In this document: positions 18,436 to 22,542 of the stretch, piece by piece | Numbering within the stretch: the stretch's first letter is position 1 | Layout of the letters: every line of letters starts with the position of its first letter | NCBI GenBank assembly: GCA_965261025.1 | Contig: OZ253438.1 | Coordinates: forward strand, 180,001-212,000 | Origin: Chlamydiales bacterium | Lineage (GTDB): Bacteria > Chlamydiota > Chlamydiia > Chlamydiales > SM23-39 | Length of the DNA: 32,000 nucleotides | Direction of reading: 5' to 3' | Notes under the pieces: generated by a model | Told to the model about the DNA's origin: nothing | What the model saw: the letters and a program-made list of their open reading frames with translations, nothing else | Database searches by the model: none | Position numbers and translations under genes: made by a program

Positions 18436-21400
18436 GTGATTGGATGTTTTTGGCGTTTTTTGAGTAATAGAGAACCTTCTAGGGAATATAGTTTTTCTCT
18501 ACTTGAGCCTGGGCGCTTTGCCCCTTTAACGCTCCCGATAGGTGGTAGATTTGAAGTGAGTAGAAGGGCAGATTCACTTGACGGCAATGTAGACCCTATG
18601 CTTGTTGTTAGGTCTTCTTCTAAGGGCCCTTACGATTTAACAGAGCTTTGTACCTATTTTTACGAGCAAAGTAAAAGAGAGATTTCGGATCGCAGTCAGT
18701 TTATGGCAAAAGAAGAGGGGGGATTACAGACTTCAATATCTACTTTGAAGAAGGAGATTGAAGCTTTGAAGAGGGAGGCTCCTAATGAGGATTATGCCGG
18801 TAAAATTCAGAGTTTAGCAGATCTTGATGAAAATATTTCGGCTAAGATTGAAGAGATGCAAATGCTAGATCAACAGCAGCAGGAGTTAGAGGCAAACATT
18901 ACTCAGACAAGGGGGGAGATCGATTCTTTACAAAGCGAGATTGATAAGGTTTCCAGAGGTACTGAAAACCTTTTAGGGGAATGTGAAGCCAAGCAAAAGA
19001 AGCTGGAAGAGGATGGGGCAGAGAATACAAGATACTCTCAACTAAAAAACGAACTTTCGGCTGGTATAGAAGATCTTCGAACAAGGATCCAAACTTTACA
19101 AGAGGAAGTTTCGAAAAACCGCTGGCCTACTTTTACCAGTTTTTCTAGTAGGGTTTCTCAAGAAGGGTGGAATTCGCAAGCTTTTGTAGAGCTTACTGGA
19201 CTTTATCGGGAGGCTTTTTTAGAAAAGGTAACTGTTCAAGGATTTGGATGGGTTCGTAAGTTTAGCGCTGCGAAGAACGCCCATCAAGGTGGGGGACTTG
19301 ATTTTCATAAGGCAGCTTCTATGCATGCTTGTTTGCAGTTATTAGGGAAGGAGATTCCCTCTTTTGTAGATAAAGCGCAAAATTTTCAGATTGCCTCGGA
19401 TGGTATAGTTTTTTCTTCACAGAGAGATTTAGAGGGGTTTTTTCAGAGCTATTTAGGAGGAAACTGCGGTTTATCCCTGCAGGCTTCTCAACTGGAAAAG
19501 TTAGTTACCCAGATTTATTCGGAAAAAAAGAGAGAGAAAATTTCTGAAAAGGGGTTTGTAGAGAGTTATCCTGGGATAGCTCCTCCTATTACTCTGCAAA
19601 GGACGGGTCTTTTGCAGTGGTCTTTTCTTCCTCGAAAGAAGGAAGTATCTCCTGCTGAGCTTTGGAGCTGTGCTACGCTTTTTGGGTTAATAAAGAGTCC
19701 ACTTTGGTCAGAAGGGGAGGCTTTTTCTTCAAAAGAATTAGCCGATTTTCGCCAGGAAGGATGGACTTTTTCTGGAAGGGAGAACTTTCAAAAAGTCACA
19801 GAGCTCTTTGTGATTGGAGAGTTTAAGGAGCTCTTAAAAGAGTTTCTTGCATCAATTTCTCTTCAAAATATTGATTGCTCGGTTACTTTTGGAAGAAAAG
19901 ATATAGCAAGTATTTTTAAGGAACACACAAAGCTGTGGAGAATCGGGCAAAGCTTGAAGGAAGAGCAAGGAGAAGGTGTTTCAGAGCGGACTAAGCAAGC
20001 TTTGCAATCCTTTATGGAGGCAATAGAGCAAAAGCGGGCAAGAAAAATTCAAACTCTTCAAGGCAAGATTCTAGGTGCTAAAAATGAACAGGTAAAGGGG
20101 AAACTAGAAAAGGACTTAGCTGCTCAGCAAAGAAAAAAGGAACAAGAGGCGGCTCGCTTTTCCCCACTACAGAAAGGTTTACAGAATCCAAACAAAGCTG
20201 CTCTTATTTCTCACATCGAAGCTGTTTTAGGAGAAATGGTAGATGAGGAAAGCGTTCGGGGAATAAAAAAAGAGTTTCTTAAGCAGATTTTTTATCAGGA
20301 AGTAGTGAAGAGTCCCGAATGTTTTGAGCTGCCCATGTTCAATGCTATTTCCTTCAAAGCCACGTTGGATAAGAACTCAAAGGCACAATTGGATAAGTTA
20401 AAGCAGAATTTGGATGGTGTATTTGCGCAGCTAGGTGTTGTAGGGGCTGACGGTAAGGTCAAGACGTGTATGTTGGATGATAAGAGGCTTTTGGTAAACC
20501 TTAGTCCAAAAGATTTATCTATTTTGACGGATAGATTTGCCTCACTTAAATATGCTAAAAATATGGGGGCGTTTAGGGGCCTTATTCGAGGACAAGAAAA
20601 TCAAAACCAAGGCTTTTCAGCTAATGTAATAGCTGGAATGAGTCCTGAACAGCTGTATTTTTCCGTTTTGACGGGGCAGCTTCTGGAATTTATACAGGAA
20701 GGTACCTGGAAAGCAGATGGAAGGGATTTAACCAGTGATGAAGTAGTTACGGTTCGAGAGCGCGAACTTACTTGGTTATCGACTTTTTTAGAAAGAAGTA
20801 TACAATTGCAGTCTTCCTTTACTTCTGGTTCTCAACTTCCTATTTTGATTCCAGCAGAGATGATTATTGCTTTTGTCCAAAATTTTACTCTGCCTACTTT
20901 TAAAGTCTTTGAGACTCAGTCCACATGTACTCCCCTGGAGATTTTGGCAGAATGTTTTGGATTCCAGCTATTGCAAGAAGATACTCTTATCAAAGATCCT
21001 AAGAAGCTTTTTGGTAATGTTTTGAACCTGTCGTCTAAGGATTGTCACTTACGCTTAGGCACGCTTCGATCTAAGCAGGACATACACTACTATACTGGTG
21101 CTCCAAGGGATATAATACTTACCCAAAGAGGAGGAGATAGGGTTTATGTAGCGGCTTCTCCTTTGTCTGTTCTTTCTTCGGCTCAGCTTGACAAGGACGA
21201 CAAGTTATTTGTTGCCTCAGTCATTTATAGGGCGATCTTTTTAGATTCAAAAGAGAGCGGTTTTTTTTCCTTATCTTCGGAGGAGTACACCTTTCTTTTT
21301 GCTCTTTTTGCAGGGCTTTTTCAGGAAACTGGGTTTTTTCAAAAGTTTGATCCGGATCAAAAAAGGCTTTGGAAGGAGAATGTTTTACAAAGTGTTCTTC

Positions 21401-22542
21401 CTGCTCCATTAATTACCATAAAAAAGCAGGAAAATCTTAGACTTTCTCCTGATGCATTGCAAAATGACGAGTTCTCAGGAAATAAATTTGTTCAAGAGGG
21501 GCTAAAAAATCTTTTTTCTGTTTTGGTTTCTCTGAAGAGGGGGGAAGGATCTGCTTCGGCAATTCTTGCTATTGGTGCATTATTGAGCATACAACATGGC
21601 CCTGGGGATTGTAATAAGGGTTTTGCTGGAAAAATAGCAGAAGGAGTTGTGGCTCTTTTGTGCCTAAGTCATATTAAAGAGCCTTGTTTTCCAAATCTTG
21701 AAGAACGTCAAGGGAAAACGGTAACGGCTACAAACTTAAGAGCTGCTTTCATCGAAAAGGTAATTGATCAGACTTTTCAAGATATTCGACGTATTGAAGG
21801 ATGGGCTAATGAAACCTTGCATTCTTGTTTTAGAGGACCACTATCCTCCGATTATTACGCTGCTATGGGAAAGTATCTCGGGATAGCAGCTTCTAAGGGA
21901 GAGCCGCTTCCTTCTCAGCTTGATCGTAGTTTTGAGCCTGACCTTAATTTGTATAATAAAAACGGCTTTGCGGCGGCAAAAAAGGTGATTCAAAAAATTA
22001 GGCAAGGATTACCTGGTGTACAATTATGGCAAAGGGGAAGAAATGGTAGAGGAGCGTATGTATCTTATCCAAAAATAGAGGGGTTTTTAGAGGCAGAGGA
22101 GGTTTCTCTCAGAGTTTTTGCGGCAGCTTACTTAGGTTTTTACGAAGAGTTGAATCAAATAAAGCAGGGAACTAGTGAGAGAAATAATCCTAGAAGTTTT
22201 TTGAGAGATCTTGGAGCTACTCCAGAGCAAATAGAGCAATTAGGAGAGGATTTCTTTGCTATTTCTACCGAACTACCTCTTTTAGTATTGAAATTTCTTA
22301 TAAAGGAAGGCTTTCTGTCTATGGCAAAAAATCCTAATTATTTCAATGAGGGTGGTTTTAAACTTGTTTTGCCACATATGGAGCAAGATGATTCTCTTTC
22401 CCTTGTACCGGAAGAGGTTTCTAAAAAACTGCAAGATATTTCTGAAGTGTATAGTTTAGGGGATCTCTTAGCTAAGTATCTTCGGAAGGAGTTTATTCGG
22501 GAAGAAAGAATTCGAGAAGAATTAGAAGAAAAGAAGAAATAG
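18436..22542 (+). CDS. very large hypothetical protein (1368 aa), coiled-coil segments plus unassigned globular regions
   Basis: This is an uninterrupted 4.1-kb ORF in an otherwise stop-rich AT-rich background. GTG 18436 is preceded by AAGGG with a 6-nt spacer. I can recognise no catalytic or nucleotide-binding motif. Confidence 0.75.
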   Translation: MIGCFWRFLSNREPSREYSFSLLEPGRFAPLTLPIGGRFEVSRRADSLDGNVDPMLVVRSSSKGPYDLTELCTYFYEQSKREISDRSQFMAKEEGGLQTSISTLKKEIEALKREAPNEDYAGKIQSLADLDENISAKIEEMQMLDQQQQELEANITQTRGEIDSLQSEIDKVSRGTENLLGECEAKQKKLEEDGAENTRYSQLKNELSAGIEDLRTRIQTLQEEVSKNRWPTFTSFSSRVSQEGWNSQAFVELTGLYREAFLEKVTVQGFGWVRKFSAAKNAHQGGGLDFHKAASMHACLQLLGKEIPSFVDKAQNFQIASDGIVFSSQRDLEGFFQSYLGGNCGLSLQASQLEKLVTQIYSEKKREKISEKGFVESYPGIAPPITLQRTGLLQWSFLPRKKEVSPAELWSCATLFGLIKSPLWSEGEAFSSKELADFRQEGWTFSGRENFQKVTELFVIGEFKELLKEFLASISLQNIDCSVTFGRKDIASIFKEHTKLWRIGQSLKEEQGEGVSERTKQALQSFMEAIEQKRARKIQTLQGKILGAKNEQVKGKLEKDLAAQQRKKEQEAARFSPLQKGLQNPNKAALISHIEAVLGEMVDEESVRGIKKEFLKQIFYQEVVKSPECFELPMFNAISFKATLDKNSKAQLDKLKQNLDGVFAQLGVVGADGKVKTCMLDDKRLLVNLSPKDLSILTDRFASLKYAKNMGAFRGLIRGQENQNQGFSANVIAGMSPEQLYFSVLTGQLLEFIQEGTWKADGRDLTSDEVVTVRERELTWLSTFLERSIQLQSSFTSGSQLPILIPAEMIIAFVQNFTLPTFKVFETQSTCTPLEILAECFGFQLLQEDTLIKDPKKLFGNVLNLSSKDCHLRLGTLRSKQDIHYYTGAPRDIILTQRGGDRVYVAASPLSVLSSAQLDKDDKLFVASVIYRAIFLDSKESGFFSLSSEEYTFLFALFAGLFQETGFFQKFDPDQKRLWKENVLQSVLPAPLITIKKQENLRLSPDALQNDEFSGNKFVQEGLKNLFSVLVSLKRGEGSASAILAIGALLSIQHGPGDCNKGFAGKIAEGVVALLCLSHIKEPCFPNLEERQGKTVTATNLRAAFIEKVIDQTFQDIRRIEGWANETLHSCFRGPLSSDYYAAMGKYLGIAASKGEPLPSQLDRSFEPDLNLYNKNGFAAAKKVIQKIRQGLPGVQLWQRGRNGRGAYVSYPKIEGFLEAEEVSLRVFAAAYLGFYEELNQIKQGTSERNNPRSFLRDLGATPEQIEQLGEDFFAISTELPLLVLKFLIKEGFLSMAKNPNYFNEGGFKLVLPHMEQDDSLSLVPEEVSKKLQDISEVYSLGDLLAKYLRKEFIREERIREELEEKKK

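Follow-up and report, generated by a model that had tools for sequence, protein, structure and literature searches.

What kind of protein is encoded by the largest gene in a 32,000-nucleotide stretch of a Chlamydiales genome (contig OZ253438.1 of assembly GCA_965261025.1, positions 180,001 to 212,000; hereafter the window), and with what does it belong? The gene, P0001, extends from position 18436 to 22542 on the + strand, starts with GTG and encodes 1368 residues (154 kDa, isoelectric point (pI) 5.9). The window holds no longer open reading frame (ORF), and the frame is exactly as given in a preliminary description made from the sequence alone. By our own estimate, 1368 open codons would arise by chance with a probability of ~1e-41, taking a stop frequency of ~0.066 per codon at 38% GC, and a protein identical to P0001 (1368 aa) is already present in NCBI/ENA. 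The sister genome GCA_964351495.1 (locus L002) has an ATG at the codon homologous to the GTG, after an identical 9-nt spacer, and the N-termini of the two products are alike (MIAFFQWG in the sister-genome protein, MIGCFW in P0001), which makes the GTG start credible. P0001 is, firmly, a real gene under constraint. Together with a small gene directly upstream it forms a cassette, which we tentatively read as encoding a secreted host-interaction factor with a coiled-coil partner (probability roughly 0.4).

A three-member family and its partner gene

An exhaustive phmmer search with residues 236–1368 of P0001 against 1.84 billion representatives returned a single other protein, P0003 (1264 aa; E = 5.9e-60). 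In BLASTP, the two proteins are colinear over aa 36–1353 and 25% identical (E = 6e-72). P0003 is encoded at locus L001, a 28-kb contig (44.6% GC) from run ERR13655511 that also bears a TLC nucleotide transporter, hrcA-grpE-dnaK, a Fic protein and a large glutamate dehydrogenase; none of these L001 neighbours is present in the window. The third member, P0124 (1716 aa; L002:12036-17183), was found via synteny. The closest homologue of the MFS protein of the window, P0005 (83% identical), lies on contig CAYGOC010000001.1 of the sister genome, where the gene order mirrors that of the window: cyoCBA, 4HBT, MscS, MFS, a 90-aa ORF, RF-1, two ORFs of 1716 and 345 aa that have no Pfam match, LicD and the esterase. 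P0124 aligns with P0001 in three colinear matches (E = 1e-13, 2e-9 and 8e-5) and with P0003 at E = 5e-23. Approximately 150 columns are invariant in the alignment of the three proteins, whose lengths range from 1264 to 1716 aa with large indels between them; ~350 aa of insertions are carried by P0124.

These comparisons firmly establish P0001, P0003 and P0124 as an undescribed three-member family, and its confinement to a few chlamydia-like genomes is equally firm. The term "orphan" used in the preliminary description has to yield to the existence of two very distant homologues, and it retains its sense in that no others were found and the family is lineage-restricted. A word-indexed search of 5.8 billion clusters, with P0001 and with a coiled-coil-stripped profile, returned the query alone. 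Two- and three-sequence profiles run on that index added no member, and no further family members were found in GTDB genomes, JGI metagenomes (two scans each) or plasmids (tblastn). P0124 itself escaped both large database searches because the representative of its 90% cluster is P0125, a 54-aa fragment that is unrelated to it and comes from a eukaryote-like ENA contig of 318 kb. Clustered databases can thus conceal a family member behind an unrelated representative, and further members of this family could be hidden by the same artefact.

Outside this family, P0001 resembles nothing that we can name. Its matches in Pfam, NCBIfam, PADLOC and PHROGs are all far below the curated cut-offs and lie almost entirely within aa 77–265. 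When six proteins were scanned, no family in these four databases was matched by more than one family member, and the matches amount to coiled-coil noise. Searches of the PDB, by sequence and with two- and three-sequence profiles, gave nothing below E = 0.2. All of this agrees with the earlier failure to place the protein in a known family. A full-length match to a housekeeping family and broad conservation outside host-associated lineages, which the preliminary description had named as counter-evidence, were both looked for and not found. A motif scan of P0001 detects no Walker A, HExxH or CxxC motif, and its highest Kyte–Doolittle score over 19 residues is 1.59 (usual threshold, 1.6), in line with the absence of a Walker A motif and of a full-length transmembrane helix read earlier from the translation. 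No signal peptide or Sec signal is seen in the protein, nor are internal repeats. Two AlphaFold2 models built from two-sequence alignments are unusable and give no trustworthy fold, with predicted local distance difference test (pLDDT) values of 36.2 for aa 236–1368 and 37.2 for aa 910–1368. The secondary structure in these low-confidence models is nearly all helical, and the predictions suggest that P0001 is soluble and mostly α-helical.

The partner gene, P0002 (17575–18426, + strand), is an ORF of 283 aa (pI 5.6), and an identical protein exists in NCBI/ENA. The product consists of an N-terminal part of ~115 aa and a C-terminal coiled coil, located by heptad score at aa 118–164 and 196–278, and yields only coiled-coil noise in Pfam and NCBIfam. 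A spacer of 9 nt (18427–18435, + strand) leads from its stop codon to the GTG start of P0001, and an AAGGG overlapping the stop codon is a possible weak Shine–Dalgarno site. A small acidic protein is encoded directly upstream of the large gene, on the same strand, in all three genomes (283 aa in the window, 345 aa in L002 and 315 aa in L001). All three have a pI of 5.0–5.8, a non-coiled N-terminal part and a C-terminal coiled coil of ~150 aa. The distance between the two genes is 9 nt in the window, 9 nt in L002 and −4 nt in L001, where they overlap as ATGA; such spacing suggests co-transcription or translational coupling. Since the L001 locus has the partner yet no other neighbour in common with the window, the pairing itself is conserved. 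The large gene and its coiled-coil partner are therefore firmly identified as a conserved two-gene cassette or operon, which covers 17575–22542 in the window. Homology among the three small partners is not demonstrable (BLASTP E of at least 0.026; shuffle z-scores of 1.9 for the N-terminal part and 2.9 for the coiled coil), and a pattern G-C-x-V..C..G.N..E common to the partners P0126 and P0127 is a hint at the motif level only.

Within the large protein, an N-terminal heptad coiled coil is defined by heptad score at aa 81–230 (18676–19125, + strand), where this crude measure exceeds the 99th percentile of shuffles. Hidden Markov models of SMC and Rad50 arms match aa 78–230 at E ~1e-5, far below their cut-offs, and both results confirm the coiled coil proposed earlier at residues ~95–235. 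A second coiled coil had been proposed at residues ~510–600. This segment is indeed charged and predicted to be helical, and it has the best pLDDT of the model (60–70); it also contains several glycines and fails the heptad test. The stretch of aa 506–600 (19951–20235, + strand), rich in Lys, Glu and Gln, is better called a charged helical linker, as far as the predicted helices can tell.

Relative to both homologues, P0001 is conserved mainly in four blocks. Block A (aa 376–505; 19561–19950, + strand) reads PP..R.GLL.W.F ... ELWS..TL ... FS..ELA.F..GW..GRE ... VT.GRKD, with an identity of 42% to P0003 and of 27% to P0124. Block B (aa 601–710; 20236–20565, + strand) contains LPMFN ... AQLG ... 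KTCM ... FAS, and block D (aa 1220–1300; 22093–22335, + strand) contains E.SLR.FAA ... L.ELG.TP ... TELP.LVL..LIK.G. Block C (aa 920–1070; 21193–21645, + strand) includes a region that the preliminary description singled out as a paired, bilobed hydrophobic patch. The loop between the two lobes of this patch is the motif I-x-H-x2-G-x-C-x-K-G-F (IQHGPGDCNKGF; aa 1052–1063; 21589–21624, + strand), with His1054 and Cys1059, which is unchanged in all three proteins despite an overall identity of ~25%, while its flanks vary. Other invariant polar residues in the C-terminal half are D1139, Y1140, E1222 and R1226. The invariant His/Cys loop is a candidate functional site and may be catalytic, metal-binding or structural.

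This loop matches none of the catalytic signatures tested: there is no HPN, no conserved PTP-type C-x5-R and no Pfam match. The active-site signature of E2 ubiquitin-conjugating enzymes is H-P-N-[IV]-x3-4-G-x-[IV]-C-[LIV], which the family consensus I-A-H-P-x-G-x-C-[LI]-K-G-F recalls superficially, with a His-Pro followed by Gly-x-Cys and an aliphatic residue. The His–Cys spacing, in contrast, is 5 in the P0001 family and ~10 in E2 enzymes, and the flanks of the loop are predicted to be helical rather than to form the E2 α/β core. An E2-like assignment was rejected in view of the missing HPN motif and the missing match to the Pfam family UQ_con.

A sharply bounded divergence island

How the cassette has evolved relative to its surroundings was examined by comparing the window with the sister genome GCA_964351495.1, by protein identity and by blastn. 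The flanks at 15940–17449 and 22524–31992 align at 70–77% DNA identity. Between them, a divergence island at 17450–22523 that coincides with the cassette has no blastn similarity to the sister genome. Protein identities follow the same boundaries: 61% for the esterase, 67% for LicD, 77% for the RF-1 domain protein, 63% for an 88-aa ORF, 83% for MFS, 85% for MscS, 70% for 4HBT, and 72, 88 and 66% for CyoA, CyoB and CyoC, respectively. The large protein is ~24% identical, and the small partner has no match. That the cassette has diverged far faster than the adjoining genes, to an extreme degree and within sharp bounds, is firm.

In relatives with an MFS protein 67, 57 or 55% identical to that of the window, other genes lie next to RF-1 and the cassette does not. 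The slot is filled by an ORF of 190 aa or by one of 148 aa; the latter bears the motif GSGFGH, is methyltransferase-like by eye and has no Pfam match. The cassette therefore sits in a variable slot and has a patchy distribution. Moreover, P0001 is closer to the non-syntenic P0003 (223–251 bits) than to the syntenic P0124 (~150 bits, three matches summed). Two explanations are possible: the L002 lineage may have accelerated enormously, or the slot may be filled by different paralogues or alleles. An SDF (sodium:dicarboxylate symporter) gene lies between the partner and LicD in the sister genome (L002:18393-19610, − strand) and is missing from the window; an SDF gene is also found near RF-1 in another locus (L006:4293-5519, − strand). 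These placements indicate that the region around the cassette has been rearranged repeatedly.

Host interaction and the alternatives

In the reading that we favour, the large protein would be secreted and host-directed, most plausibly by way of type III secretion, as the preliminary description had proposed. Alongside it, the small protein would be secreted as a partner or adaptor, docking by coiled-coil pairing with the N-terminal coiled coil of the large protein, and the activity or a binding surface would reside in the conserved C-terminal blocks with their His1054/Cys1059 loop. An arms race with the host, or adaptation to a different one, would then account for the rapid divergence. The lack of a Sec signal and the coiled-coil-rich, lineage-specific and fast-evolving character of P0001 fit secretion, and the divergence island, set between well-conserved genes, lends indirect support to a host-directed role. 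Chlamydial type III effectors often contain coiled coils, and lineage-specific type III effectors of this kind in the Chlamydiota include TarP, the DUF582 proteins and CT622/TaiP. P0001 is like this class in being large, chlamydia-restricted, devoid of a Sec signal, rich in coiled coil or helix, fast-evolving and variable in length, and unlike it in that it has no sequence similarity to these proteins (no Pfam or NCBIfam match). To our knowledge, a conserved coupling to a coiled-coil partner of ~300 aa does not occur in the TarP, DUF582 and CT622/TaiP families. Chlamydiae are obligate intracellular bacteria, and type III secretion, which is conserved among them, delivers effectors into host cells (PMC11317633).

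A number of observations weigh against secretion. None of the features that fit the effector class is specific to secreted effectors, and fast divergence is equally expected under relaxed constraint. The 32-kb window contains no secretion-system gene and no small class-I-type chaperone. Class-I type III chaperones are small (~130–170 aa) and acidic; the partner is acidic (pI 5.0–5.8) and, at 283–345 aa and with a long coiled coil, twice the typical chaperone size. By its sequence the partner would not be a classical chaperone, and a role as partner or adaptor is possible. The N-terminus of P0001, MIGCFWRFLSNRE (MIGCFWRFL), is aromatic, not Ser/Thr-rich and not obviously signal-like. N-terminal composition, which is not diagnostic, gives 9 of 30 residues as S, T, N, P or I in P0001, and P0003 begins with MTTTHSISSLG. 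Family scans of P0001 detected no eukaryote-like domain, and neither AlphaFold model provides a fold that would back any activity. Finally, environmental chlamydiae often encode large hypothetical proteins, many of which are not effectors.

Two assignments to known protein classes can be set aside with the data at hand. The preliminary description had noted a faint likeness of the hydrophobic pair at aa 1036–1080 to the bilobed motif of the chlamydial Inc proteins, which would anchor P0001 in the inclusion membrane. In its favour are the chlamydial origin of P0001, its two short hydrophobic stretches and its coiled-coil segments, one of which very weakly matches IncA (PDB 6e6a). That match, the only one in the PDB, has an E value of 0.2, is statistically meaningless and represents coiled-coil noise. 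The Inc-defining hairpin comprises two transmembrane helices, each at least ~20 aa long, with a short loop between them; the lobes in P0001 are ~14 aa long, with 19-residue Kyte–Doolittle scores of 1.06 and 1.42, below the usual threshold. In P0124 the hydrophobicity is lost and the flanks are polar (AESVLKKLAG and NSYLMEIQEG) while the loop is invariant, and the patch lies ~1040 aa into P0001, an atypical layout for an Inc protein. The Inc-type reading is thus rejected and, in our view, effectively refuted. A chromosome-maintenance or defence protein of the SMC, Rad50, JetC or LmuB type has even less to recommend it. The heptad stretch at aa 78–230 resembles the arms of these proteins, and NCBIfam and PADLOC models of SMC, Rad50, JetC and LmuB match with E values of 1e-4 to 1e-5. 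The matches cover the coiled-coil arm only (aa 77–265), however, at 17–24 bits against family cut-offs of 270–1087, and the rest of P0001 is unmatched. It has neither the hinge nor the Walker motifs, and the missing ATPase head effectively refutes this reading.

The remaining explanations differ in what they make of the divergence and of the invariant loop. The cassette might encode a non-secreted, lineage-specific and weakly constrained scaffold or structural pair of coiled coils and helical domains, with a part, for instance, in the envelope, cytoskeleton or developmental cycle. The predicted helicity with long coiled coils, the lack of a secretion-related neighbour, an N-terminus that is not signal-like and a position among envelope and lipopolysaccharide genes (LicD, Wzy, OprB) all suit a scaffold. 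Core structural proteins, though, are normally kept among close relatives, whereas this pair is ~24% identical or undetectable between flanks of 61–88%, and related genomes lack it in that slot; we regard a scaffold as possible but doubtful. If the extreme divergence, the large indels (proteins of 1264–1716 aa) and the absence from related genomes are instead taken as signs of relaxed selection, the pair would be drifting towards loss with no important present function. Nevertheless, three AT-rich genomes retain uninterrupted reading frames of 1264–1716 codons as well as discrete conserved blocks and an invariant motif, and the genes have kept their operon spacing and the place of the start codon, all of which makes such decay improbable. 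The loop has a different bearing. Its invariance between variable flanks in three proteins of ~25% identity, with D1139, Y1140, E1222 and R1226 invariant in the same C-terminal half, could mark a novel Cys/His-dependent enzyme or toxin (perhaps a protease, a deamidase or a ligase) with His1054 and Cys1059 in its active site, a proposal compatible with an effector role. Against this, the protein matches no peptidase, E2, PTP or other catalytic family, we know of no catalytic arrangement that a His and a Cys five residues apart would fit, the motif might equally serve as a turn in the structure or bind a metal, and no usable structural model exists. We consider an enzyme or toxin unlikely, if less so than decay.

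A more elaborate form of the secreted-factor reading would make the cassette a hypervariable, exchangeable two-gene module of Simkaniaceae-like chlamydiae, with a new fold and a Cys/His active loop, delivered with its partner, and with alleles or paralogues swapped into one slot. Swapping would explain why the copy in the window is closer to the distant, higher-GC copy at L001 than to the same-locus copy of the sister genome, but taken as a whole the module is a speculation to which we give little credence.

The favoured reading of a secreted host-interaction factor concerns a sequence family that is new and of a familiar kind: hypothetical proteins of environmental chlamydiae that are rich in coiled coil, specific to one lineage and quick to evolve. 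The former orphan now stands in a small family open to testing, which offers a conserved operon partner, defined conserved blocks, an invariant His/Cys loop and a signature of accelerated divergence, and effector repertoires outside the Chlamydiaceae are almost unknown. If secreted, P0001 would act as a host-interaction module specific to its lineage and might be among the determinants of host range; if not, it would be one more of the fast-evolving hypothetical proteins common in environmental chlamydiae.

Lineage and neighbouring genes

The FabI encoded in the window scores 403–410 bits against Brassica ENR and PDB entry 4q9n, which we take to be the Chlamydia trachomatis enzyme, and at most 144 bits against other bacterial FabI proteins. 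A plant-type FabI is characteristic of the Chlamydiota. The named homologues of the adjacent MFS transporter are all assigned to Simkaniaceae, Chlamydiia, Chlamydiae, Neptunochlamydia, Simkania or Parachlamydiales. Both results agree with the chlamydial lineage proposed in the preliminary description, and these sequence affinities confirm the organism as a Simkaniaceae-like member of the Chlamydiota. The TLC nucleotide transporter on the L001 contig adds to the evidence for a chlamydial lineage.

Upstream of the cassette, an envelope-related run (12473–17456, + strand) encodes a Wzy-type O-antigen ligase, an OprB porin, a PETase/PAF-AH-like esterase and a protein of the LicD phosphocholine-transferase family. 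The Wzy (12473–13894) and OprB (13765–15183) ORFs overlap by 130 nt as listed, which indicates that the TTG start of OprB is probably set too far upstream. Near the beginning of the window, an ORF of 322 aa (852–1820, + strand) has no Pfam match. Downstream, the operon cyoA, cyoB, cyoC of a cytochrome bo3-type quinol oxidase (26334–29748, + strand) is syntenic in the sister genome, with products 66–88% identical. The 88-aa ORF between RF-1 and MFS (23021–23287, + strand) has no Pfam match; its counterparts in L002 and L003 share 63% identity with it, and ORFs of 90–93 aa occupy its position in L010–L013. It is likely to be a real small lineage-specific gene.

Two further observations concern related contigs. 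On the ERR13655511 contig, a 464-aa Fic-domain protein is encoded ~300 nt upstream of the cassette (L001:7362-8756, + strand). On Logan contig ERR14224705_716704, beside the MscS–MFS genes of a related chlamydia, an ORF of 682 aa (L004:1-2049, + strand), whose 5′ end is cut by the end of the contig, encodes an ADP-ribosylglycohydrolase domain (E = 4.7e-41) fused to a eukaryote-type PARG macro domain (E = 1e-8). Its domain composition hints at an enzyme for the removal of ADP-ribose, possibly directed at the host.

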